From Podarcis vaucheri (taxonomy: Eukaryota): 64,000 nucleotides of DNA. The stretch lies in the NCBI GenBank assembly GCA_965113315.1, contig OZ220364.1; one strand, written 5' to 3'. Positions 32,201-59,800 of this stretch are shown here, one piece after another. Both the position numbers and the translations under genes were made by a program. Each line of letters opens with the position of its first letter. Positions within the stretch are counted from its first letter, which is position 1. The notes below the pieces were generated by a model. The model was not told the DNA's origin. It ran no database searches and saw only the letters and a program-made list of their open reading frames with translations.

Positions 32201-35200
32201 TGGCTATATAACACGTACAAGGAGACATAGGAAGCAAGCAAACAGGCTAGAGTGATCTATACCTTGCTAAAACCAATAGCTGCTGGTACATAAATATATG
32301 TCTCTTTTTCAGTGTGGCTTTGATGTGGACCGTCTTGTTGAAAAGAAGAAAAAAGCCCTAAAGAAGAAGCAGAAGAAAGACAAGAAGGAAGCCAAGAAGG
32401 CAAAGGTGGATCATTTTCTTCTAAATTACTAATTAGTGTGTTTCCATGAAGTTTATTGTGTGTGTAGTTAATTCATAAATAATTTGAGGCAAGAAGGAAA
32501 GGCGGCTAAATCATTGTTTTCATGTGGGGACCTGTTCACACATGACACTAAGCGCACTTTTGCTAAAAGGACCTTTGGTGTTTTGTAAATACTTGCAGAT
32601 TTTGTTAATACGGTCCTAAGCCAGCCATGTTTTAACTTGGAGATAGTTACCTGTAGCCCTTCTGATGCTGTTGGACTACAACTCCCATCATTCCCAACCA
32701 CTGTCCATGCTGGTTGGAGCTGATGGGGATTGGAGTCCTCCAGCATCTGGAGGTTTACAGGATAGTTACCCCATTTTTAACCTGAAGTGAAATCCATTTA
32801 GGTGGGGAATCTTTTTCAGCACAAGGGCCAAATTCCATTTTGTCAACCTTACAGTGGCCACAAACTAGAGGTCAGCAGGGCCAGAGGCAAAAGTGGCCAG
32901 ATCAATGAACAGTAGAGTGGGTCTAGTTTCTACACATGCTCACACACCTTGCTCTATCGTGTATGTCATAGTTCAAGGACATCTTCCAGCCACAAGGGCA
33001 CAGGGTTTGAAGCTTTTTATAGAAGATGTAACTTCTCTGTTCCTTCTGCCTTCTGTTCTTTGTCCCAGAAGTAATTTATGGAGGTTCTCAAAATGTCACA
33101 TGGAGACACAATTGCTTTGAGTTTACTCGGACTTCTGTTCTGCTCTTGTTTTGGTAACAGAAAATGGCTTCTCAGATCAAAACAGTGTGTGACTCTGGGA
33201 GCAACAACCTGGCATTTGTGAATATAGATATGGAGCCAAGGGCACAGGTATTTATCAATCTGGGCACGAAAGAAAGTTGTGGTCAACATTTCCGGGAGCA
33301 GGCATTTAACATGATCATATGAGTAAAACCCATATGATGATGATGATGTTTGGTACTGTGGGGAACAATCTGGATTTGTTGTCTCAGGCACCAAAATGTG
33401 TTGGTCTGTCTCTGAGTAGACTTGCCGCAGACCTTTCATACTGTTGATAAAGTGGCTCTCCACCAGAGCTGCTAGAAAAGCTGTGGCACAAAGCCATTTC
33501 CGACCTTGGGAGGAGGTGGTGTTGTGGACCTCATGCCCCCAACACGCGTACGGAGGCTGGCTCCCAGCCCCCGCGCGATCTGGGGAATCCTCGGCCGCAT
33601 CATCCCCTGGACAGCCAATTGGCTGGCCCAGGGGGTGTGCCTTGCCTCATTTAAGGCAAGTACAGCTGAGAATCTCCCTCTTTGGCCGCTCAGCTCCTTC
33701 GGTTTCCTGCCCGCCCTTCAAGGTTTCCCTTCTGACCTTGCTATGAACCTCAGTTGGTCGCCATTAAGGGGCCTGGTAGGAATTTATTCCACTTGGCAAA
33801 TTGGCACCAGCCATTTGGTTTTTTGCCTACCTCGTAGCAAACCGTCACAACTTTCTCAGTTTTGGCGGTTAGGCATTGGTATGGGTATTGTTATGGAGAT
33901 GTATGGGGGGGGGAGCGCCATCACCTCCCCCAGATATTGAAGGGTATTCCGGTAAAGGATTCCGGGGGGGCATGGCCCCATCCAAAGCCTATGGAGGTCA
34001 GAGCCTAAGGCACGCCCTTAAGCAGTGACCCCAGGTGAGTTCCTAGTTGATGTGCATCAGCAGGGCTCACCCTGCTGGTGTTAACCCTTCCCGGTCTTCA
34101 TGCAAACAGGCTGAAGATTAGCAAAGTCCACCCCTGCTCCTTTTCCAAAAGGCCTGTGCCTGCAGCTGCAGCTCTCTGTACATCTTCTGAAAAGAGATGG
34201 GTGAATCTGCCAGTTTTGGTTTCTCTTAGTTCCTCATTTTCCCAATCTTAACTTCAATTCTCCACATTTCCACATCAGTTTGTGATTATTTTTAAAATCC
34301 TTATGAAAATTCAGCAGCATTTCAGTTTGAACTTCTAATATACGCATTTTGTATGCAATTTTGCCATATATGCAGATTTTGTGCAAAGCATATTTTCCCT
34401 AATTTTTATATTTCCCTTAATATGAATCACGTTTGTCATATTAATATAAGTGCGCTAGCATATGCATTTTTAGGCACGCTTTACTGTGGTATGTGCATTC
34501 TTGTGCATGTTGCTTGACTAAAGAACTGCACTGCGAAATTTGCAGAAGTGTGAATTTCCAAGGGTGGTTGTGTTTTGTTCCATGTAGTGTTTTGGAATGT
34601 GCAAATTAAATGTGAAATGAATTGAATTTCTCACCCACCCTTAGTGTTGCTGAGACACATTATGAGCAGAACCAACCTGAGAAAACCCAATGGCCAGAAC
34701 ACTGTTTCATGTTGGGGGGAAATACTGTGATTTTTCTTTCCTCACAGGAGCAGGGAGATGACACAGCAGCCACTGCTGCTAATGGAAGTGTGACTGACTT
34801 GGCCCCCCAAAACCAGAGCCAACCACAACCTTCTGGCAAACCCACTTTGCATTCCCTGGGACTGAAGAAGCCTCCTCTTCACTCGCTCATCCTGGACCTC
34901 ACCCCTGTCAACTTTGTGGACACCGTCTGCATAAAGACCTTTAAAAACGTAAGGAGAGGACAACAACCAGGAGAGGGACACCTGTCATGAGAGAGTTGTT
35001 CTGTGTGCAGCCAAATCTAAAAGGCAAATCTGCCTCATGAGGAAGACTCCTGGAAAGGGAGGGGTTTCAGATGGCTTGAGCTGCTTGACTTCCAGCTAGA
35101 TGACTGAGAGCCAAACTCCATGTGAGGTTAAATGCAGCTTTGCATCTAAACCTGTAGGTTTCTTAAAATGCAGACGGCACCAGCTGAAGGTGCTGTGAAG

Positions 35201-42774: not shown

Positions 42775-45700
42775 CATGGATCACTGCCTTGCCGTGGCGA
42801 AGGGGCTTGAATAACTCAGAGAAGCTATGAACTATGCCGAGCAGGGCACCCAAGATGAACAGGTCATAGTGGAGAGTTTTGACCAAACGTGATCCACCTG
42901 GAGCAGGAACCGGCAAGCCACTCCAGTATCCCTGCCAAGAAAACTCCATGGACAAAGACAACAGGCATATAAAAGTTATGACGCTGGAAGATGAGCCCCT
43001 CAGGTCGGAAGGTGTCCAACATGCTACTGGGGAAGAGCGGAGGACAAGTACAAGTAGATCCAGAGCTGATGAAGCGGCTGGGCCAAAGCCGAAAGGACGC
43101 TCAGTTGTGGATATGCATGGAAGCGAAAGGAAAGTCCAATGCTGTAAAGAAAAATATTGCATAGGAACCTGGAATGTAAGAACCATGAACCTAGGTAAGT
43201 TGGATGTGGTCAAAAATGAGATGGCAAGAATAAATATTGACATCCTGGGCATCAGTGAGCTAAAATGGACGGGAATGGGCGAATTCAGTTCGGATTACTA
43301 TCATATCTACTACTGTGGGCAAGAAACCCGTAAAAGAAATGGAGTGGCCCTCATAGTCAACAAAAGAGTGGCGAAAGCTGTACTGGGATGCAGTCTCAAA
43401 AATGATAGAATGATCTCGATACGAATCCAAGGCAGACCTTTTAACATCACAGTAATCCAAGTTTATGCACCAACTACTGGTGCTGAAGAAACTGAAATTG
43501 ACCAATTCTATGAAGACTTACAAGACCTTATAGAAGTGACACCAAAGAAGGATGTTCTGCTCATTATAGGGGATTGGAATGCTAAAGTAGGGAATCAAGA
43601 GATAAAAGGAACAACTGGCAAGTTTGGCCTTGGAGATCAAAATGAAGCAGGGCAAAGGCTAATAGAGTTCTGTCAAGAGAACAAGCTGGTCATCACAAAC
43701 ACGCTTTTCCAACAACACAAGAGACGGCTCTACACATGGACATCCCCAGATGGGCAACATCGAAATCAGATTGATTATATTCTCTGCAGCCAAAGATGGA
43801 GAAGCTCTATACAGTCAGCAAAAACAAGACCTGGAGCTGACTGTGGCTCAGATCATCAGCTTCTTATAGCAAAATTCAAGCTTAAACTGAAGAAAGTAGG
43901 AAAAACCACTGGACAGGTAAGATACAATCTAAACCAAATCCCTTATGAATACACAGTGGAAGTGAGGAACAGGTTTAAGGATTTAGATTTGCTGGACAGA
44001 GTGCCTGAAGAACTATGGGTGGAGGCTCGCAACATTATACAGGAGGCAGCAACTAAAACCATCCCAATGAAAAAGAAATGCAAGAAAGCAAAGTGGCTGT
44101 CCAACGAGGCCTTACAAATAGCGGGGGAGAGAAGGCAAGCAAAATGCGAGGGAGATAGTGAAAGATACAGGAAATTGAATGCAGATTTCCAAAGAATAGC
44201 AAGGAGAGACAAGAAGGCCTTCTTAAACGAGCAAAGAAATAGAGGAAAGCAACAGAATGGGAAGAACCAGAGATCTGTTCAAGAAAATCAGAAATATGAA
44301 AGGAACATTTCGTACAAAGATTACCATAATAAAGGACAAAAGTGGTAAAGACCTAACTGAAGCAGAAGACATCAAGAAGAGGTGGCAAGAATACACAGAG
44401 GAATTATACCAGGTAGTGTGGTTGCTGACCTTGAGCCAGACATCCTGGAGAGTGAAGTCAAATGGGCCTTAGAAAGCACTGCAAATAACAAGGCCAGTGG
44501 AAGTGATGGTATTCCAGCTGAACTGTTTAAAATTTTAAAAGATGATGCTGTTAAGGTGCTACACTCAATATGCCAGCAAGTTTGGAAAACTCAGCAGTGG
44601 CCAGAGGATTGGAGAAGATCAGTCTACATCCCAATCCCAAAGAAAGGCAGTGCCAAAGAATGCTCCAACTACCGCACAATTTCACTCATTTCACATGCTA
44701 GCAAGGTTATGCTTAAAATTCTACAAGGAAGGCTCAAGCAGTATGTGGACCGAGAACTCCCAGAAGTGCAAGCTGGATTTAGAAGAGGCAGAGGAACCAG
44801 AGACCAAATTGCAAACATGCGCTGGATTATGGAGAAAGCTAGAGAGTTCCAGAAAGACATCTACTTCTGCTTCATTGACTATGCAAAAGCCTTTGACTGT
44901 GTTGACCACAGCAAACTATGGCAAGCTCTTAAAGAAATGGGAGTGCCTGATCACCTCATCTGTCTCCTGAGAAATCTCTATGTGGGGCAAGAAGCTACAG
45001 TTAGAACTGGATATGGAACAACTGATTGGTTCAAAATTGGGAAAGGAGTACGGCAAGGCTGTATATTGTCTCCCTGCTTATTTAACTTATATGCAGAATT
45101 CATCATGCAAAAGGCTGGGCTGGGTGAATCCCAAGCCGGAATTAAGATTGCCGGAAGAAATATCAACAACCTCAGATATGCAGATGACACAACCTTGATG
45201 GCAGAAAGTGAAGAGGAATTAAAGAACCTTTTAATGAGGGTGAAAGAGGAGAGCGCAAAATATGGTCTGAAGCTCAACATCAAAAAAACGAAGATCATGG
45301 CCACTGGGCCCATCACCTCCTGGCAAATAGAAGGGGAAGAAATGGAGGCAGTGAGAGATTTTACTTTCTTGGGCTCCATGATCAGTGCAGATGGTGACAG
45401 CAGTCACGAAATTAAAAGATGCCTGCTCCTTGGGAGAAAGGCGATGGCAAACCTAGACAACATCTTAAAAAGCAGAGACATCACCTTGCCAACAAAGGTC
45501 CGTATAGTAAAAGCCATGGTTTTCCCAGTAGTGATGTATGGAAGTGAGAGCTGGACCATAAAGAAGGCTGATCGCCGAAGAATTGATGCTTTTGAATTAT
45601 GGTGCTGGAGGAGACTCTTGAGAGTCCCATGGACTGCAAGGAGATCAAACCTCTCCATTCTGAAGGAAATCAGCCCTGAGCGCTCACTGGAAGGACAGAT

Positions 45701-45958
45701 CGTGAAGCTGAGGCTCCAATACTTTGGCCACCTCATGAGAAGAGAAGACTCCCTGGAAAAGACCCTGATGTTGGGAAAGATGGAGGGCACAAGGAGAAGG
45801 GGACGACAGAGAATGAGATGGTTGGATGGTGTTCTTGAAGCTACCAGCATGAGTTTGATCAAACTGCGGGAGGCAGTGGAGGACAGGAGTGCCTGGCGTG
45901 CTCTGGTCCATGGGGTCACGAAGAGTCGGACACGACTAAACGACTAAACAACAACAAC
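42775..45958 (+). mobile_element. BovB (RTE clade) LINE, full length, frameshifted
   Basis: APE endonuclease (GTWNVRT, GISELKW, GDWNAKVG, NQIDY, SDH) at 42879-44348 and RT (QGCILSP, YADD) at 44382-45947; 3' end ..GAGTCGGACACGACTAAACGACTAAA(CAA)n; TSD AATGCAGAAAT at 42764-42774 and 45959-45969; frame breaks near 44232 and 44410. Confidence 0.96.
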
Positions 45959-48980: not shown

Positions 48981-49919
48981 GAAAAATGTTTAAAATGGAC
49001 AAAAACAGATTTCTTGTCTCCAAATAACCCTGCTCACATAGTAAAAAGAGGTTTCCAGACTTCTGTAACAATAAGCAGCCCAAAGAGGACCCAAAGTGCT
49101 CAGCAACCACAGAATGTGGCCTGGCTGTTGTGGGAGGGAACGGAAAATCAGGAGAGGGGCCAGATGGAATGGAATGGAATACCCTGGTAGAGGGCATAAA
49201 ACACTGAGAGGGCAGCACATATGTTGGGATGGACACTTTTTTTTGAACAGGCCTTGGGCAAGGTGGCAGTGAGATCAGGGCTGTGTGGTTAAACCGGCAG
49301 AAGAGCCGTATTGCCCCAACCTCACCATTGCCCTGCCCCCAGCCCCATCCAGGAAAGCAGGAGCAGCACAAGTGTCAGGATGGTGGCTTCATAGCTCCAT
49401 CTCACTAAACACAGCCACCACCAAATCCTGAACATCAATGCTCCACGCTGAAACATCATGTTGCGTGTCAAAACCCCTCCCCCAGAAAGAAAGACACAGG
49501 ACACAATGTTTAAGTTTAATGGGCATGAAATGGCCACAACTTTATTGATTAGAGAATTGAAGGTATTGGCCCTAGGCATTGGCTCCTATCCGCTACCCGG
49601 CATGATGTCCGGGAAGGGTTAACACTAACCGTGGGAGGCCCCCGTTGGAGTACGCCAACTAGGATCCCACGGGTGTCACCGCTTGGGGCGTGCCGGGGGC
49701 CCTTACCTAGGTAGGTTTCGGACAAGACAACGCCCCTCGGAGTCCTGTACCGGACTACCCCATTTCCTGGGGGAAGGTGATGGCGTTCCTTCCCCCCCAT
49801 CCATTTGCATAACAATTGTACCCCAGCCAATGCCTAACCGCCATTCGAGCAAAGCTCGCCGCCAATACCTTCAAACCTGTAACCAACTCCTATGCCCTGC
49901 TATGGAAACCCCTGAACCC

Positions 49920-50452
49920 AGGACCTAATCCCCGTTCTGATATCACCCAACCATAGGTCGTTCCCTGCATCTGACAGATGCACGCCATCCCTTCTGTAGA
50001 GGGCCTCGTTGCTGAACTGGATGCCCGGGTGTCTGATGACAAACCCGCCCCAGAGCTGCCACTCTACGTTCCACCGCTCGTTCCGAAACCTTTCTCGCCT
50101 TGTTGACTCCTACTGGGCTCACGCCATCTCTCCATGTCCTTCTCGCAAACAACGAGGACCAAATTATTGTGATAAGTGGGTTTGCTATTACCACCTCAGA
50201 TCGATCGCCTTGCGATAAGCGAGATCGTTTTCCCCAATTGAATCACTAGGGCGTCAGGCGGACCCTCGGCCGCAGCCCTGGCCATCACAGCCGGTTTGCT
50301 TTCACTCCAGCGCATCCCTCTACGCGCTATTCAAACCAGCTCCACCCTGGGATGTAAACTCAGGTTGCCGCCCAGACCGCTTCTCAAGGCATGAAACTTG
50401 GCCCAGTGCACGATGCTGTGGCCCACCAACCAAATGCGCAATCTCGTGGGTT
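49920..50452 (-). pseudogene. Decayed SGNH/GDSL hydrolase ORF4 of the Ngaro-like element
   Basis: Manual translation: RIWLVGHSIVHWA (block I), RGMRW (II), PDALVIQLG/NDL (III), IIWSSL..R, RDGVHLSDAGN (V, DxxH). Interrupted by TGA at 50331-50333, TAA at 50188-50190 and frameshifts near 50232 and 50050. Confidence 0.85.
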
Positions 50453-50501
50453 CTGAAAGGCAAATAGAAAAGTGGGCGGAGGTCAGGGGTGTAGCACGCA
50501 G

Positions 50502-51392
50502 TCACAAGTTGCTTCTCACATAGGCCTTGTACGCGTTAGATTTCCACCTCCCCAAGTCTTTAATCCTCTCCGTGGGGAGCCCCATATGTACTGCAGTGGT
50601 GGCTGCGCCAATACGGAAGGAGTGAGCAGCAAATTCTGATGCCGGGAAACCACAAGCCGACAATGCCGACCGCATAACCCTAGTGAACTGGTGTCTAGTA
50701 AGGCGGGATCCGTCCGCATGTATCAGAAGCGGACCGGGTCCGCTAGGCCTTAGGTAAAGAAAACGCCTCGTGTCCCGAACCGGACAAGGGCCCTTCCCGA
50801 GAGCTGCCGGCAGCCGGAGCAGGGCCCCCTTGCCCTGCTGATCTGTCTTTGAGCTCCGCACCCGCACTATGAGATCGGTTCTAGAAAGGGTCAGGTCGCT
50901 CATCAAGATTCCCCTCTGAGACTGGGTGGCATCTCCTTCACATACTACCTCGCCTACACGTAGGGCGCCGAAGAAAGCTATGGAAAACGCTGTTGAGAAT
51001 AAACGCGCTTCGTGCTTTGACCAGCAAATTTCACGAAGAACTTTGTGAATCTTAAACAGAATTTCATAAGTTACGGGCCGCCTCCTGTCCGCACATGGGG
51101 GTTGCTGTCTGCGCCATCCCTCCAGAGTTTTGCGCACAATGAAGGCTGCGCAGGGGTCTTTCTCGAAAAATGTTTTACAAAAATACGAGATCCCTGCTGA
51201 GTGAATATTGAGTGTCTTAGGAGCCCGGCCTAACTCCCTCATGTGTGCCAAGTAGTGGAGGACCTCCCTGGTTGAGGGAGTGGTGTGACTACTAGAGCCA
51301 GGGATGCGTGCGCGAAATCTTAAAAAATCGACCCAAGCCTTCTTATACGATCTCATTGTGGACGGGGCCACTGCACCGAATACTCCCTTCAT
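50502..51392 (-). CDS. Tyrosine recombinase ORF3 (296 aa)
   Basis: N-terminal SAM-like region (STMRSYKKAW); catalytic set FFGALR(R), SKTDQ(K), HSFR(H,R), GRW(W), AYKAY(Y). Confidence 0.92.
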   Translation of the reverse strand: MKGVFGAVAPSTMRSYKKAWVDFLRFRARIPGSSSHTTPSTREVLHYLAHMRELGRAPKTLNIHSAGISYFCKTFFEKDPCAAFIVRKTLEGWRRQQPPCADRRRPVTYEILFKIHKVLREICWSKHEARLFSTAFSIAFFGALRVGEVVCEGDATQSQRGILMSDLTLSRTDLIVRVRSSKTDQQGKGALLRLPAALGKGPCPVRDTRRFLYLRPSGPGPLLIHADGSRLTRHQFTRVMRSALSACGFPASEFAAHSFRIGAATTAVHMGLPTERIKDLGRWKSNAYKAYVRSNL

Positions 51393-52552
51393 TATGTCTC
51401 GCTCCCAATCCTCCAGAGATGCTCCGGGAAAGGCATCGATGATTGGTCCGCTTCTGGCGCTAACGAGCGGAAGCGCTCCATCTGAAAACGAGATAGAGCG
51501 TCCGCGATGTCATTATTAATGCCAGGCACGAATTTGGCTGAAAAGTAAATATTCTGTTCTAAACACAGAAGGACAAAAGCGCGCAATAGATTACCCACTC
51601 TGGTGGACCGTGCAGATTGCCTAGCAAGGACCGCTACCACTGCTTGATTGTCGGTGTTAAAACAAACCCTGCGATTACGAAATAGACCCGCCCACAAATG
51701 CACCGCTACGACAATCGGGCTGAAAGATTCAAAGGCTGCACATGCAACGGAGCAGCCCATGGGCATAGCCTTGTCAATGAAATACGCGCCGTCAAATTTA
51801 AAGCCCAGCCATTTAAAGTCGTCTGGGTGAACTGGGAGAAGACGGAAGGCGGACTCGATGTCGCATTTTGCTAGGAACGCCCCCTGACCGAATCGACGGA
51901 TCATTTTTACAGCCCGATCGAAGGAGGCGTATTTCACTGTACAAAGCTCCTGAGGAATCGCATCATTAACAGAACCCCCTCTCGGGTAAGAGAGGTTGTG
52001 AATCATGCGGAATTCCCCCGATGCCTTCTTTGGCACGATGCCCAGCGGGGAAAGGTGAAGCCCCTGAAAAGGCGGTTCAAGAAAGGGACCTGCAACCCTG
52101 CCTGCCCTGATTTCCTTCTCTATTTTCTTTCTGACTATGTCGGGCCGTTCCCTAACAGATTTTTGGTTATCCGCCTCCCTGGAGTTGGGTGGGGTGGCCA
52201 CCGGGATCCTAAATCCCGTAGAAAACCCCTCCCAGAGGTATTTACCCGCGGTTTTATCTGGGTATTGTTCTAATAGGACTTTGAGGGGCTGCAGGCGAAT
52301 AGGGGAGAATGCCAAACCTAGGTCAGTGTTACTGGCGATTGCCGGGACCTTGACGGGATGCACCGGGGGCACCTCTGGGATTGTTAAGGAAGTACCCCCT
52401 GCCCCCCCGAAAGGGCTGAGGCTTATTTTTGAAGCACGCGGAAGCGGGGTGATTACCCCAGCATTGCTCGCATTCATGTAGATACTTACAAGAGGGGCGA
52501 GAGCACACGCCCCTGTTGAACTCCCAGCATTGTCGACGCTTCTTTGGCTCAA
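51392..52552 (-). pseudogene. RT/RNase H ORF2 with in-frame internal deletion of the YxDD core
   Basis: SPLGIVPKK..FRMIHNLS, KCDIESAFRLLPVHP, MPMGCS followed directly by late RNaseH (PIVVAV..TDNQAVV..PGINNDIADALSR); no YxDD anywhere. Confidence 0.85.
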
Positions 52553-53897
52553 TCTTACCCACTTTTTCTGCCTCCTGACTCTTCTTCTCGATGTAAGGGT
52601 TTACATCCTCGCCCCAGTAGTTAGGATCTGTGAGGTCCCATCGAGTGGTGGGGTGGAGAGAGGCATTCCTCCGGAAGTTCTCGTCGTACGTCAAAGCAGC
52701 GTTTTCACCTGCCAGGGCCCGAGCTCGCCTCACATGAGCCTGGTAAGCTACTAAATCCATGGCGCGGTGGGGGTAAGCTGCGCAAACTACACCCATGAAA
52801 ACCTGGTACCCGTCTAACCAGTTCTCAAATGTGCGCTCCGCCCTGGGCGATCTATATTTCCTTCTACCATAAGAGCGTCTTTTTTCACCTTTTCCTGTTA
52901 TTTTTGTTGGGGGGAGCAGGGTAAACATATCCACGTAATCCCCGTTGAGGATCTTATTCCTCTTCCTATGTGACAAGTGGTTTCCCAGAATGAAGTCTGT
53001 GGGCTGATTGGTAGCAACCTTAACGTCCTCTACCAATGTCCCATCCTTCCAATACAAAACCCCGTTAAAAACCTTTCGGTGGGAATTGGCCCTCCTTTCA
53101 TGAGCCCAAAGGGGGATCCCATGGTTGGACTCCCCAATACCCCAATAGCCATCCATTGGCCCTTCAGAATCAGAATCTGAAGAGGACGTACCTGATTCCT
53201 CCTCCTCGGTGTCCGAATGCCTGCTCCTCTTCTTTTTTGCCGACGTGTGCTTCTTTTTGGACTTCCTCTTACCCCCTTGTGGCACGCCGGGAGTGGCGTC
53301 GGCCAATGGCTGAGATGGCTGATTCTCCCCCAGTTCCCCTTCGGAACCAGAACCCGCGCTGTCCTCAGTGGAACTGCGCGCCTGCTGCTCCTGAAAGGCA
53401 CTTGGTATACCTATAGCTTGAGAGATGGTGTTACTGCCGCTCCCTTTTCTGGGTGCCTTCCCCTTACCTTTGCCCTTTGCTGGGGCCTTGGCTTTACTGG
53501 TAGCTTGTGTTGCTTTTTTAGAGCGGGCGGACTGCGCCCGCGTACCGGGTCGGCCACTAGCTACGGCAACGGGCTGAGCACCGGCTGTCGATGCAGCCGC
53601 CTGGGCACCGGCTGCTGGTGGGACCGATTGTGCCCCAGCCGTCACTGTAGCCGAGGGCCCTGACAGCCCCTGGTTGGAGGGGGGAGTATCAGGTATTACG
53701 TCCTGCGAAGGCTCTAGAGCGGGCAGCGCCGAGGACCCTGGTCTACATTGCCTATAAAGAGTTTCGAACATCCTGAAAAACTGTTGTAAAGATTGAGGAT
53801 CATAAGGTAAGGCTGAAGCCTGCGCGCCCCCATTACTTGTGGAGGGGACCGGCTGGTCGCCGCCAGTGGTGGACTGCTGATTTTCTCCGGAATCCAT
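52329..53897 (-). CDS. Gag-like ORF1 of the Ngaro-like element (522 aa)
   Basis: Low-complexity basic/acidic N-half, YDENFR..RWD motif, C-terminal CCCH+CCHC fingers (CWEFNRGVCSRPSCKYLHECEQCWGNHPASAC). Confidence 0.85.
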   Translation of the reverse strand: MDSGENQQSTTGGDQPVPSTSNGGAQASALPYDPQSLQQFFRMFETLYRQCRPGSSALPALEPSQDVIPDTPPSNQGLSGPSATVTAGAQSVPPAAGAQAAASTAGAQPVAVASGRPGTRAQSARSKKATQATSKAKAPAKGKGKGKAPRKGSGSNTISQAIGIPSAFQEQQARSSTEDSAGSGSEGELGENQPSQPLADATPGVPQGGKRKSKKKHTSAKKKRSRHSDTEEEESGTSSSDSDSEGPMDGYWGIGESNHGIPLWAHERRANSHRKVFNGVLYWKDGTLVEDVKVATNQPTDFILGNHLSHRKRNKILNGDYVDMFTLLPPTKITGKGEKRRSYGRRKYRSPRAERTFENWLDGYQVFMGVVCAAYPHRAMDLVAYQAHVRRARALAGENAALTYDENFRRNASLHPTTRWDLTDPNYWGEDVNPYIEKKSQEAEKVGKIEPKKRRQCWEFNRGVCSRPSCKYLHECEQCWGNHPASACFKNKPQPFRGGRGYFLNNPRGAPGASRQGPGNRQ

Positions 53898-54125
53898 GAC
53901 TGCTGAGCAAATTTAGAATGTGTAAGCAAATCAGATACTATCCGCAAAACCTGAGGGTGTATGTGGCTGCAGGGATATTATTAGCTAACTGCCTCCCGCA
54001 GATGGGAGTCTGTCAAGTTCAGTACGTTCTACACTGGCAGGAGCTTGGGAGAAGGGATCCGCCTTCTAAACAATTTCAACTTGTTTGTTTATTTATTTAT
54101 TTATTTATTTATTTTTATTTTATTT

Positions 54126-54158
<33 letters not shown>

Positions 54159-54161
<3 letters not shown>

Positions 54162-54395
54162 AGGTTTTGGTGTCTTCGGGTGTCTTCCCGTGTAAGAGTC
54201 GGGGTGTCTGTGCGACGTTTCGACGAGGTCTCACTCGTCATCTTCAGGCTGGTGCTTTCGGCTTCTTGTTACTGGAACAGAGCAGAATCTGGTGTTTGAG
54301 TTCCTATAAATACTGTTGAGGGGTGTGGTGTATAGCCTCCAACGTTCTGGGCAGAGATTTGCAATCTACGAACGTAGATTTGCAATCTACGAAAG
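54159..54395 (-). mobile_element. Penelope-like element fragment nested in (TA)n inside the Ngaro-like leader
   Basis: Contains a PLE-type minimal hammerhead motif; (TA)n/(TATG) runs on both sides. Confidence 0.65.
54212..54249 (-). ncRNA. Minimal type I hammerhead ribozyme motif (Penelope type)
   Basis: Minus strand reads GC-CUGAAGA-U-GACGAG-ugagac-CUCGUC-GAAAC-GUC-GC: conserved core, 6-bp stem II, but only ~2 bp of stem I. Confidence 0.65.
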
Positions 54396-54701
54396 CAAAT
54401 ATATATATATGTATATATGTATATATATATACCTATATATTATCTAATTATTTGTTGTGTATATATATATATGTAGTCAGATTATCGTAGTATATTAACC
54501 CTAAATGTTATAACTTATAAATCCCACTTATAAATGTAAATCACAGAAATAACTATGTGTTCTACTTGCCTGAGCTACTCCTCCTACCAGTCAATCTCAA
54601 TATATGAGACTAAAAGTGCAGATATTAACTTTGCAGTAAAACAGTAAAATGAAATATATTCCACCTTCTTCTAGCAATCTGATGTTTAACTTTTTAACAC
54701 C

Positions 54702-54746
54702 TGGTCTCCCATCCAATTTGAGACCACGTTGGACCCTGCTTAGCTT
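54702..54746 (-). promoter_or_regulatory. 5S rRNA-derived internal control region (A box and C box), not a full 5S gene
   Basis: AAGCTAAGCAGGGTC-N15-TTGGATGGGAGACC: both blocks and the 15-nt spacing match vertebrate 5S rRNA; spacer and flanks are diverged. Confidence 0.8.
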
Positions 54747-54884
54747 TGCAAATGTGCTAGCAGTTTTATTGCTGCACCACCAGGGGGACTCTCCAATCTT
54801 GAGGGAAACAGGAGCTTAACTTCCAAGAGCTAACAAAAGCTTAGCTAGTATTTAAGCCGCTAAAGCCAATATACTATCTAACAC

Positions 54885-55170
54885 TACTAGGCAAATAAGC
54901 CAACCTGATAGGTACACAACCACAGAATAAAATAACTAGGAATTAAATCACAGGCTGCTGCCAAATTACAGGAATAAAATAACTAGAATTAAGTAATTAA
55001 AGGAACAAAATAACTAGGCAAATAAGCAACCTGATGAGCACACAACCACAGGCTGCTGCTGAATTAAAGGAATAAATTAACTAGGAATTAAGTAATATAA
55101 GGAACAAAATAACTTGGCAAATAAGCTACCTGATAAGCACACCATTACGGGCTGCTGCCAAATTAAAGGG
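54885..55170. repeat. Imperfect tandem repeat, ~3 units of ~110-130 bp
   Basis: GGCAAATAAGC..ACCTGAT..CACA..GGCTGCTGC..AATTA recurring at ~54888, ~55016, ~55125. Confidence 0.8.
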
Positions 55171-56169
55171 CTAAAGGAGCGGGAGAAGGACGCACGGAGC
55201 GACAGCAGGCGAGGGGAGGAATCGGCTCCAAAGAGCAAGGAGGTTTAAACGAACCCCACAGAGAAGGGAGACCTGGCAAGCGTGTGTTACCCTTTCCAAG
55301 CGCAGGATCGAGATTCCAGCTCCAGCAAAGACAGAGGTCCCGCTAGTGATTTCAGCTCCGGCTGAAGGTGAGGGCAGCTGAACGCAGTTGAAAAAAAACA
55401 AATCCCACGACGCTTGAACAGGCTTGAGGAAGACCGGGTAAGAGATCAAAACCTCTCAGCTGGTCGGGAGTGAAGAGGGCGGACCCTGGGCGTGCCCGGC
55501 TTAAAATACCTTAAGCCACGCCTCCCCCCGGCCCGCCGATAGGCGGGCGGGGTCGCGAGCACGCCCAGGGATTCCCCCAACTCTCGCGGGGGCCAAGGTT
55601 AGCCCCCGCGCTTGGGGAGGAGGGGCTAGACCGCAACACCCTCTCCTCCCTATAGTCGGAAATGGCTTTGCAGGTCCCACTGCCTTGAAGAAACTTTTGT
55701 GCAACAGGTGGATGGGGGGGCATTTTAATAATCGTTTTAATATTTTCCCGTTTAGATTAAAATGAGGATAGATGACTTTTTAGAAGTTTGATTCTATAAA
55801 ACGATCGCTTTCCCCGTTTTTAGCTGCTTTTATTTTAGCAGTAAGCCGCTTTGAGTCCCTGTCAGGGGAAAAAGCAGAGACGAAATTAGGCTTTCTTTCA
55901 CCCTGTTCAAAGACCCAATTTGGAACCCCCTCGTTATAAATTCTCTCTCCCGGGACGGCGGAAGATTTTACCAATGGCCTGTCCATTTAATGAGGTGGGT
56001 TCTTTTTTTCTTCAGCCTCCCTTTCTCTGACTTTTTATGTTTAAGAGAAAGAATTAAATCTTAGGAAACACACAAGCAGGCGGTCAGATTCTGGGCTAAC
56101 TTTGAAAGAAACTGCATGGGCTTCTGCCCTCATAGAGGTAGAAGATTCGCCAAAAGCACTGCTAGTTCC

Positions 56170-56830
56170 TCTTGACACACTTCCGGTCTAAAATGGAACA
56201 AGTTCTCCACTCAGGCTTCCCATGCAAGGTATAGGCCTCTTCCCTCAAATGACGCAAGCGAGCGACGCCCATGGAGAAGCCCCTGACCAACGGCGGCCTT
56301 CAATCTTTTACCGTAAGTTTAGCCTGTGTGTGTGACTCTTAACTCTTTCTTATCTCTCTCTGGTGACTCCCCCTTTACGACGTCTACGGGTCCTACCATC
56401 TTTCTCCTGCGCATGCGGATGTCTTGCCTCATCTCTGATTCCCCCCCCTTCCTCCTCCCGCGCATGCGCTCTTCCCTCTCCTCCTGCCGAGCTGCCGGGG
56501 TTAAGGCGGCAAGATGGCGGCGTCCTCTGTGTGCCGGGCCGCGGGTTGTGTGGCCAGCCGGGCCCTTCTTCGGGGTCCTCACGCTCCGGTGAGTGCCTGA
56601 CCGGGTGGGCCGCTGACGGGGTGGAAGAGGAGGAGGAGGAAGGGGCGGCGGTGGTGGGCAGAGGGGGAGCGGACGAAGCGGGGAGTGTGTGCGGAGCCCG
56701 GGGGGAAGCCGCTCGCGAAGGTCACGGCGCCCGTCCAGGCCGCCCATTTCACCAGCCGGGCGAGGCCTAGTGGCTGAGAGCTGCCGGCGATGGAAGCGCA
56801 AATCGTGACATTCTACAGATACCGTGGGTT
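56170..56830 (+). promoter_or_regulatory. UQCRC1 CpG-island promoter with NRF1, ETS/GABP, CRE-like and YY1 motifs
   Basis: GC/CpG-rich. GCGCATGCG twice (~56409, ~56460; NRF1), CACTTCCGG at ~56178 (ETS/GABPA), TGACGCAA at ~56250, CAAGATGGCGGC over the ATG (YY1). Typical of nuclear respiratory-chain genes. Confidence 0.8.
56514..56588 (+). CDS. UQCRC1: UQCRC1 exon 1
   Basis: aagATGgcg start in CpG island, gtgagt donor. Confidence 0.92.
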
Positions 56831-59800
56831 GCAGCCCCCCCCACCAGCCTTCACGCCCCCCCCCCCGCTGCTGCTGCTGCTGTTGCTGGGGCGGTGCTCA
56901 TTTTGACAGCATCGCCACTTACCCTCCCATATCCCCACATTGGCCGTGTCCTTTGGAGCAAAAATAAAACGTGCCTCTGAGCACCTGCAGAGTGTTTTTC
57001 CTGCGCCCCGAGCAGCCTTTCTAAGACTTCATATGAGGGGGCAGGGTTTCTTTCTGAAGTCAAGCGGTCCAGTTCATTTTAGGCGTGTAGTACTGACCAC
57101 ATCTTGCTGGGTAGCGTTGTGGGAACACAGTCCAAAAAAAGAGGAAGAAACATGTTTTCCGAAACATTTGTGGCGGTAGTCCCAGAGCTCTTAAATTCAT
57201 TGTTGAGCTAAAGTGAGATTGGGCAGAAGTTGCCAACTTGCCACCGTTATGCGGATATAAAAATCTCTCCTTTTTTGTTTTTGTGTTGCAAAATAAGCTT
57301 CTGATGTGCGCACGTCAGATTTGATTCATGGGATAATGGAATTAGGAGTTCAGTTCTTTTAATGAAATTTGGGGTTGCTTTAATTGTTAGAGACGTTTTT
57401 CAAATGATTACATTGAATTTAAATAATGAGCTGTTTCTGTCATCAATCTATGTAGAAAGATAAGCATTATTTTGACTTAATATTTGGGGCAGGTTTAATA
57501 CCTTTAAGTTTAATGTTCTGCTACAGGTAATTTATATGCCTTGTGGTGTTCATTTGTGTATTTCCCCAAGTGCATTTGCAAAGATTTAATGTAGGAATTC
57601 ACAAGTTTATTTGGGGAAACCTCATTTTTCACTTTAAAAGATGTAGTTTTCAGTACTGGAAGGAAGATTTCATAAGGCATTCTTTTTAGTTAATAGTACA
57701 ACGATTGTAAAGCTTTTTTCTGCAAATCCTCCTGAACAGGTAATTTTGGAGTTGATGTATTTGGCACCCCTCTGTGGATGGGTGGCATTGGGGTCTACGA
57801 AATGCCTGCTTCCGTTTGCAATTTCAGTGGCTAGGGAGGCATGACATAGAATTGCTCATCATTACACTTTGACGATGCACATGCTAAGCTGGTGGGCAGT
57901 AATCTGAGGCAGTCCTATTTATGAAAGATGTAGGTTATAGTGAGATTTATACATTAGAACCAAAATGGTCAAAGGCCTGGAAACGATGCCTTATGAGGAA
58001 CGGCTAAGGGAGCTGGGCATGTTTAGCCTGGAGAAGAGGAGGTTAAGGGGTGATATGATAGCCATGTTCAAATATATAAAAGGATGTCACATAGAGGAGG
58101 GAGAAAGGTTGTTTTCTGCTGCTCCAGAGAAGCGGACACGGAGCAATGGATCCAAACTACAAGAAAGAAGATTCCACCTAAACATTAGGAAGAACTTCCT
58201 GACAGTAAGAGCTGTTCGCCAGTGGAATTTGCTGCCAAGGAGTGTGGTGGAGTCTCCTACTTTGGAGGTCTTTAAGCAGAGGCTTGACAACCATATGTCA
58301 GGAGTGCTCTGATGGTGTTTCCTGCTTGGCAGGGGGTTGGACTCGATGGCCCTTGTGGTCTCTTCCAACTCTATGATTCTATGATTCTATGAAATGGGAC
58401 TGGATGGAGAATTTGTCATTTTCAGTTTTGTAATTTAGATACCACTTACCTGCTACTGCCAAATGGCAATATCTTTAATAGCAGCACCTTTTATAGTGAC
58501 TATTTATAGACCATTGACTTTGAGTGCTTTGGGCTCTCCTTTATTGCCGGGGCAAATAACTGGGTTTTTGCAGAAAGCTAAATTTTAAATAGTTGTTTAT
58601 AAATGTTTATTGCAATGTTGTAGATGGGATGTTTCAGATCTTAGAGACAAAATACAATAAAAGTGTGCTACATTCAGCTCAGTCAATGGAAAGTTGTAAA
58701 GCCATCTCTCTGTAGTGCTTCTTTATATTTAAAATTGAGGTTGATTGAACAAAAATTGATTTTCTGCTGTGTTGGACCCTTATAGAAAGGAATTGGTTAG
58801 GTCAGTTAGATACCGGTGATGTAATACAGTGGACGCTCGGGTTGTGAATGTGAAAACGTGTAACCTGAAGCGTCTGTAACTCGAGGTGTGACTGTATTGA
58901 AAACTCCATTCAGGTATATGATGTATGCATATACCATGGTGTCCTCTTTCTGATCAGAAGTTATTTTTTGTATTAATGCTGGGATATTTTTTTTGGTGGT
59001 GGTCACATTTCATCAGGTGGTTTCTGTAACAACTTAAAATTGCATACAAGTAATTTTTCACATGTATCTGATGTCTTTATATGACTCTTCGTGTATATAT
59101 CTTGTTATATGAATTGTGCTTTTGACAATAAACTTTTCTTTAGCCAGCTTTATGGAGTTTGACAAGAAGAGGAAGCACTGCATCTTATGCTCAGGTGCTG
59201 CATAATATTCCTGAGACACATGTCACCACTCTAGACAATGGCTTACATGTGGCTTCTGAACAATCTGGCCAGCCTACTTGTACGGTAAGCATAATATGGG
59301 GTTCTGAAAATTATTAGAGTCTCTGTTGTTTCAGTTGGGCCTATCTTCAGTTAAAGTTTGCTATTTTTTATTTAAGTGTATAACCTGCCATCTTTCTGAG
59401 TTTCAAGTTAAAAAGTACTATTTTTGAAAAACAGAAAATAAAATTCTAAAAGATAAATATCAAACTAAATGAGGAGCAAACACTAAATAATTCCTCTCAC
59501 TGATTCAAAAAAATGTTCTGACTTCAGTGACTCTCCAGGAAAAGGAATTCACAGCTATGAAGTAGCAACTGACAGTGCATCTTTGGATTTTGCTTGCTTG
59601 TTCTTTGCTTGTTGCTGATCAATGGCAGTGATTCTCAGATTTTATTCTGAAGAACCCTAAGGTTCCTGTGGAAGCTTATCTGGGGCTTCTCCGTGAGAAG
59701 GCCAGAATGACAGGCAAATGTTCCTGAAACATGCCCAGCGCAACTGATCTACTCTTCAGCGTATAGCCGTTGAGTATTTTCTTGGGTTCAGTTTCAGTTC

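Follow-up and report, generated by a model that had tools for sequence, protein, structure and literature searches.

Structure of the element

The window, that is the whole stretch of 64,000 nucleotides from Podarcis vaucheri (contig OZ220364.1) that was analysed, carries on its minus strand a Ngaro-like tyrosine recombinase (YR) retrotransposon, a name based on gene content and not on RT or YR phylogeny. The SGNH hydrolase frame forms the 3′ end of this element, behind the recombinase (Table 1), in the position of the SGNH ORF of the amphibian Ngaro type. The closest named relatives of the element proteins were from Podarcis and Zootoca. The gag-like ORF comes first and encodes a basic, disordered N-half, a conserved C-half and a Cys/His zinc-finger region, followed by an RGG tail. 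RT/RNase H comes next and is internally deleted; this copy is dead, because the RT codons missing at 51721 include YLDD. No methyltransferase match was found after RNase H, and the frame ended right after RNase H in the window copy and in P0055, P0062, and P0064. The YR frame matched the Pfam profiles Phage_integrase (E = 2.5e-4) and SAM-like (E = 1e-3), neither of which reached the curated cut-off, and a tyrosine recombinase thus stands in place of a DDE integrase.

Table 1. Features of the element and of a related remnant (window positions).
Feature	Position	Strand	Remark
5′ terminal A-like region	55473..55670	-	66% match (134/204) to 33489-33682 of the related remnant; exact end uncertain
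gag ORF, 522 aa	52329..53897	-	85% identical to Podarcis muralis model P0022
Predicted fusion coding exon 1	53192..53897	-	Alignment of P0001 aa 1-238 with 53897-53184, 76%
5′ splice donor CAG/GTACGT, 53192/53191, phase 1	53186..53194	-	Third of 320 GTs; of 41 called Gag models, 6 break exactly at this site
Predicted intron, 2739 nt in the deleted copy	50453..53191	-	Spans the C-half of Gag together with RT/RH and YR
RT/RNase H frame, +1 relative to gag	51392..52600	-	~224 codons gone at 51721, YLDD motif among them
CCC_TTT_CGG, candidate +1 frameshift site, Gag into RT	52407..52415	-	Only in-frame TTT-CGN in gag
Tyrosine recombinase (YR) frame	50502..51509	-	First ATG 51392
Candidate second acceptor 51482/51481, phase 1 in YR frame	51481..51505	-	Rank 7 of 434 AGs
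3′ splice acceptor 50453/50452 with CTGAC branch point and pyrimidine tract	50453..50486	-	Highest-scoring acceptor of the element
Decayed SGNH/GDSL hydrolase exon with one stop and three frame breaks	49900..50452	-	Motifs; profile and fold of relatives
3′ B-like repeat region	49600..49843, on to ~49460	-	75% match (186/249) to 33863-34103; AATAAA at 49546
Related remnant, A-like part then B-like part	33489..34103	+	Resembles the A2-B2 end of split direct repeats

The window copy has one A-like and one B-like end, and a second copy of either was not found inside the element. Loss of split direct repeats is common in the Ngaro copies of Xenopus, according to the text available (PMC9210276). The remnant on the plus strand belongs to a related family and has no ORF-sized interior. 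Short inverted termini were considered for the element and dropped, as the similarity to the remnant runs further upstream, to 55670.

Several other features were observed around these genes. The 5′ leader of the element contains three imperfect repeats of ~99 nt (54886-55183) and, at ~54160-54400 on the minus strand, an insert flanked by (TA)n runs, which we take to resemble a Penelope-type end with a hammerhead-like core. A search of 49300-57000 against Rfam gave three matches, all below the gathering score and taken as chance, and no hammerhead match for this insert. A GC-rich, CpG-island-like stretch recognised by eye at ~56300-56900, ~700 nt upstream of the 5′ end of the element, is possibly a host promoter. 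The endonuclease and RT frames of a LINE, presumably RTE/BovB-like, were located at 42870-45947 on the plus strand.

The SGNH frame and its start

The first-pass annotation had reported an SGNH frame with blocks I, II, III, and V, interrupted by stops and frameshifts. Such a frame is present at this locus; however, its coding span is 50452-49900 and not 50501-49920, and block I reads GHS instead of GDS. Block I (G-H-S) begins at 50423, block II (R-R-G) lies at 50324-50316, block III (G-E-N-D) at ~50234-50224, where a frameshift splits the motif, and block V (D-G-V-H) at 49989-49978, with the terminal stop at 49902-49900 (all on the minus strand). The Ser, Gly, Asn and Asp-x-x-His of these four blocks are all in place. 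The breaks comprise an in-frame stop at 50333-50331, a frameshift at ~50230, a short deletion with a change of frame at ~50190-50180 and a frameshift at ~50048, the last three positions being read by eye from translations and tblastn.

The first SGNH segment of the window retrieved 2 relatives among 61 candidates, and an intact SGNH domain retrieved 21 among 1127. A profile of nine sequences gave 2677 matches at E ≤ 0.001, the best 150 of which were examined. None of the three broken window fragments matched Pfam in the HMM searches, and the intact relatives P0001 and P0002 reached E = 0.003 and 0.001 against Lipase_GDSL_2, short of the curated cut-off. A family profile built from 63 sequences had the ZfL2-1 ORF1 esterase (4c1b) as its best match in the PDB (E = 3.8e-11; next match, 5.9e-5). 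A profile was needed for this, as phmmer of P0001 alone against the PDB returned weak matches only (3p94, E = 1.5). The residues S248, G281, N311, D400, and H403 were each conserved in at least 90% of the 63 sequences, and they are also found in the window copy.

The AlphaFold model of P0001 contained one confident domain at approximately aa 240-425, with pLDDT of 94-99 over aa 241-420. It matched SGNH hydrolases in Foldseek (E = 2.8e-8) and aligned to 3p94 with a Z score of 20.0 and an rmsd of 2.4 over 174 residues. Judging from motifs, profiles and this model, window positions 50452-49900 (minus strand) encode a decayed SGNH hydrolase, for which esterase activity is predicted. The N-half of the model was of low confidence, with one helix at ~aa 34-51; in Gag, this segment (~53800-53745) is the only predicted helix of the N-half, is conserved across Gag relatives and is a candidate self-association or membrane element.

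Block I shares the frame of the YR and lies 26 codons past its stop (TGA at 50504-50502, followed by CTG). That no ATG intervenes, as the first-pass annotation had stated, was confirmed, and the earliest in-frame ATG (50315) lies downstream of blocks I and II. Block I was recognisable in 147 of 167 SGNH matches, and no Met was fixed before it, since at no single offset between 2 and 40 did more than 11 of these 147 proteins have Met. Residues with T-rich codons just before the SGNH domain had a frequency of 0.29 in 22 proteins with short N-termini and 0.19 in 79 with long N-termini (p = 5e-6), the other 46 proteins falling in neither group. This enrichment is explained if a pyrimidine tract was translated in the short forms, which would give such residues.

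One explanation of these data is that the SGNH protein is made alone, from its own promoter, from a non-AUG start or with a leader exon that has a different donor, like the env-like ORF3s. In LTR elements, an ORF3 typically forms a spliced unit of its own, according to the text available (PMC5408684), the SGNH ORF of Xenopus was seen with an ORF finder that accepts ATG only (PMC9210276, available in part), and several short matches among the best 150 start with Met right at block I. However, this explanation conflicts with the scattered Met positions, the leader lacks a strong donor (best score 2.7 vs. 5.7), and the annotated forms of the family of the window element begin with Gag. We consider it very improbable.

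Read-through of the TGA-CTG stop, which would yield a YR-SGNH fusion, had been proposed as another route. The common frame of YR and block I in the window copy would allow this, and TGA followed by C is a leaky stop context. The 26-codon spacer, however, consists mostly of branch point and pyrimidine tract. Furthermore, a C-terminal YR motif scored above all 30 shuffles in 6 of 124 relatives (only the top 16 were shuffled), and five of these six were out of frame, three in the +1 and two in the +2 frame; the single in-frame case was a model without the spacer. In-frame cases are invisible to this test, since the stop ends the called ORF, and the result indicates from sequence that other frame offsets occur but says nothing on how rare the in-frame arrangement is. 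Because the YR lies in other frames in relatives, read-through was excluded as a family-wide route and rejected as the general mechanism of expression, and we regard it as extremely improbable.

Splice signals and Gag-SGNH gene models

Splice sites were scored over the element (55640-49455) with approximate weight matrices. The acceptor at 50453/50452 ranked first among 434 AGs, and only 26 of the 8997 AGs on both strands of the window scored as high. Its CTGAC (50486-50482) lies ~30 nt upstream, and a stretch of 57 nt contains no AG. The donor at 53192/53191 was equalled or exceeded by few sites, 32 of 6520 GTs in the window scoring as high. Both sites are in phase 1, as is a further donor at 53468/53467, and the donor, branch point, pyrimidine tract, AG and phase of a GT-AG intron are thus all present in the sequence. 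The predicted exon 1 of 706 nt would consist of Gag codons 1-235 plus one base, with the helix at ~aa 34-51, the Lys/Arg tract and an acidic run.

The first-pass annotation had named this acceptor and two phase-1 donors in gag. The acceptor with its branch point and tract held up, and so did the donor at 53192/53191, where two lacertid pairs of Gag and Gag-N+SGNH models diverge. The second donor at ~53467 found no support: it ranked first of the 320 GTs, its residues are not conserved in relatives (Gly in 13 of 29, the next Lys in 18 of 29), and P0001 runs through it without splicing there.

The position homologous to the donor could be called in 41 of 46 Gag relatives, and Ser or Thr preceded it in all 41. 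Thirty-five of them continue with Gly-Thr/Lys/Ser, all compatible with G/GTA, while six break at the donor and resume with Val, Asp or Gly, which have G-initial codons as phase 1 requires; this pattern was written down after the alignment had been viewed. The donor codons were Gly in 38/38 and Thr in 36/38 Gag relatives. Since Ser238-240 and Asp243 vary no more than Gly236 does, the conservation of residues at the donor may be protein-driven.

The predicted fusion was found among annotated genes. P0001, an NCBI model of 428 aa from Podarcis muralis (LOC144328932), joins Gag 1-235 to SGNH exactly as predicted and continues with E-P-S-R-L-R-I-W-L-V-G-H-S, the SGNH exon beginning at residue 236. 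It was 92% identical to the full Gag P0022 over aa 1-238 and divergent beyond. In Zootoca, a full Gag (P0035) and a Gag-N+SGNH form (P0004) occur under one gene id (LOC118082278); they are identical at 205 of 207 residues and then part at the homologous donor. As a rule, NCBI issues isoforms only where transcripts support them. P0004 and P0035 are both labelled isoform X2, and they probably come from different annotation releases.

The 21 SGNH matches were sorted into 2 fusions with confirmed Gag, 10 Podarcis models in which a basic tract and a Ser run precede SGNH, 4 read-in models that reach SGNH through what lies upstream of the acceptor, 3 joins of YR to SGNH and 2 others. Four of the 10 Podarcis models were similar to Gag P0065 in its N-half (E = 1.7e-9 to 7e-5). 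When 82 SGNH N-termini were compared with 35 Gag N-halves, 6 matched, all of them lacertid, as was the whole Gag set. The sequences therefore support a fusion that is seen as annotated gene models, with the Gag identity of the N-half limited to lacertids. Gene predictors also joined SGNH to other pieces: apart from the three YR joins, a YR piece precedes the read-in stretch of P0012, the SGNH region seems to be entered in a wrong frame in P0046, further YR-SGNH joins occur among the best 150 SGNH matches, and there are attachments to host genes as well. Because of these other joins, a model alone is not proof. In P0005, P0020, and P0081 the YR is joined to SGNH at the YR motif S-K-T-D-Q, which is possibly an internal phase-1 donor or a prediction artefact.

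The varied joins would also fit the view that the Gag-N+SGNH forms are no regular product, and are either prediction artefacts or non-autonomous DNA copies, processed or deleted at shared sequence. Both splice sites end in TCAG; with this microhomology, an identical junction would result from DNA deletion or in a processed copy. However, one gene id carries both the Gag and the Gag-N+SGNH form, and the junction occupies a single, fixed position of Gag in two families with ~49% identity between their Gag proteins, whereas the YR joins vary. The read-in relatives, moreover, show an acceptor-like tract in their genomic context, and a processed copy would itself imply splicing. This view was thus judged improbable.

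Here, we propose, with a probability of about 80%, that in intact copies SGNH would be the last exon of a spliced mRNA that fuses the Gag N-half to the esterase. What was observed comprises the splice signals, the match in phase, the absence of an ATG for the SGNH frame, the matching gene models and the SGNH fold. The in-frame Gag-SGNH fusion by splicing, as suggested in the first pass, is supported by gene models at the exact donor and acceptor named there, and we infer that the RNA is very probably spliced in vivo. Translation would start at the gag ATG, and the phase-1 GT donor just past the Lys/Arg tract of Gag would be joined to the acceptor ~50 nt behind the YR stop. The splice would skip the Gag C-half, RT/RH and YR and give a subgenomic mRNA, while the unspliced RNA would serve for full Gag and as genome. 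The product would be a protein of ~428 aa with a basic, disordered Gag N-half and an esterase that keeps all catalytic residues.

By analogy with ZfL2-1 ORF1p, the shared N-half might bring the esterase into the element RNP, where it would position the particle or set it free by binding or hydrolysing membrane lipid. We offer this role tentatively, at slightly less than even chances. Since the catalytic residues are retained, a non-catalytic role in RNA binding, as in Oskar, seems less likely.

Related systems and further candidate signals

The closest counterparts in architecture were the Xenopus Ngaro-like elements DIRS-53_XT and DIRS-54_XT, which, in the text available, also carry gag, RT/RH, YR and then an SGNH ORF, have no methyltransferase and have often lost split direct repeats (PMC9210276). 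The earlier statement that some Ngaro elements carry an SGNH domain is borne out by them. In Xenopus, SGNH was treated as a fourth ORF of unproven function, whereas in the window element it would be the last exon, fused to the Gag N-half; the available text contained no occurrence of "splic" or "intron" (PMC9210276).

The best solved relative, ORF1p of ZfL2-1 in the CR1 clade (4c1b; PMC3905857), has the same catalytic set and a basic Arg/Lys motif N-terminal to the esterase. That protein, which has a coiled coil, is encoded by a non-LTR element in a single uninterrupted ORF, whereas the window element would reach the same layout by splicing from gag, as judged from sequence alone. In the part of the source available, its authors favoured membrane targeting with regulated phospholipase activity, and ORF1p, with its arginine-rich motif ahead of an active esterase, was dispensable in HeLa assays (PMC3905857). 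The GDSL ORF3 of bdelloid Vesta and the env-like ORF3s are likewise extra 3′ ORFs, in Vesta for an esterase, and are typically made from spliced messages; they belong to integrase elements and form a separate unit, and a half-Gag fusion was not found in the text examined (PMC5408684). The OSK domain of Oskar (5a4a, 5cd9) also has the SGNH fold and aligned to the P0001 model with a Z score of 17.2 and an rmsd of 2.7-2.8 over 171 residues. Oskar is non-catalytic, whereas the SGNH family of the window element keeps S, G, N, D, and H.

That Ngaro elements can carry an SGNH ORF was thus already known, as were the spliced ORF3s of LTR elements. [quoted passage not shown] The splicing passages seen in PMC7192593 concern a reporter intron. 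In the available literature, the expression of the stacked, ATG-poor ORFs of DIRS and Ngaro elements and the role of the hydrolase were described as open. Our analysis names a likely protein, the Gag N-half plus esterase, with base-exact junctions. If it is correct, assays of the Ngaro SGNH as a free ORF would address the wrong protein. The analysis further suggests that the layout of a basic RNA-binding arm plus esterase was reached by different routes in a YR element and in LINE-type elements.

Two further signals may belong to the expression of this element. The candidate second acceptor at 51482/51481 sits nine codons into the open YR frame. A single gecko model, P0020, enters the YR at the corresponding Asp, which precedes the same Trp by 25 residues, and has a basic and acidic N-terminus that is putatively Gag. 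Reinitiation is a rival to splicing here, as the RT stop overlaps the first YR ATG in TAATG (51394-51390, minus strand). The TTT-CGN site in gag lies just past the zinc-finger region, and its Phe (33/35) and Arg (29/34) are conserved in relatives. In amalgaviruses and influenza A, UUU_CGN has been described as a motif for +1 frameshifting (PMC6356274, available in part). The conservation of Phe-Arg could derive from the RGG box instead, and RT could start at an ATG in its own frame (52477).

Taking both signals together, vertebrate Ngaro elements could follow a retrovirus-like programme based on a single transcript, in which unspliced RNA would yield Gag and, with a +1 shift at UUU_CGN, Gag-RT/RH, and the mid-gag donor would be spliced to the acceptor at 51482/51481 for Gag-N+recombinase or to that at 50453/50452 for Gag-N+esterase. 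We consider this extended scheme rather unlikely. Were it true, all proteins of the element would share the basic Gag N-half as a targeting module, and the esterase form would represent a spliced counterpart of CR1/L2 ORF1p.

The SGNH domain was also seen in proteins of other layouts. In 5 of 17 long matches scanned (P0150, P0178, P0186, P0192, and P0084), cold-shock (CSD/CSDE1-like) domains were combined with SGNH, and several of these shared a similar junction. From their sequences, they may represent a host gene with a domesticated esterase, and their RNA-binding-plus-SGNH layout is reminiscent of Oskar. P0068, P0069, P0074, and P0077 were 1300-3100 aa long with four to six matches to the SGNH profile, and block I was changed in some of the repeats.
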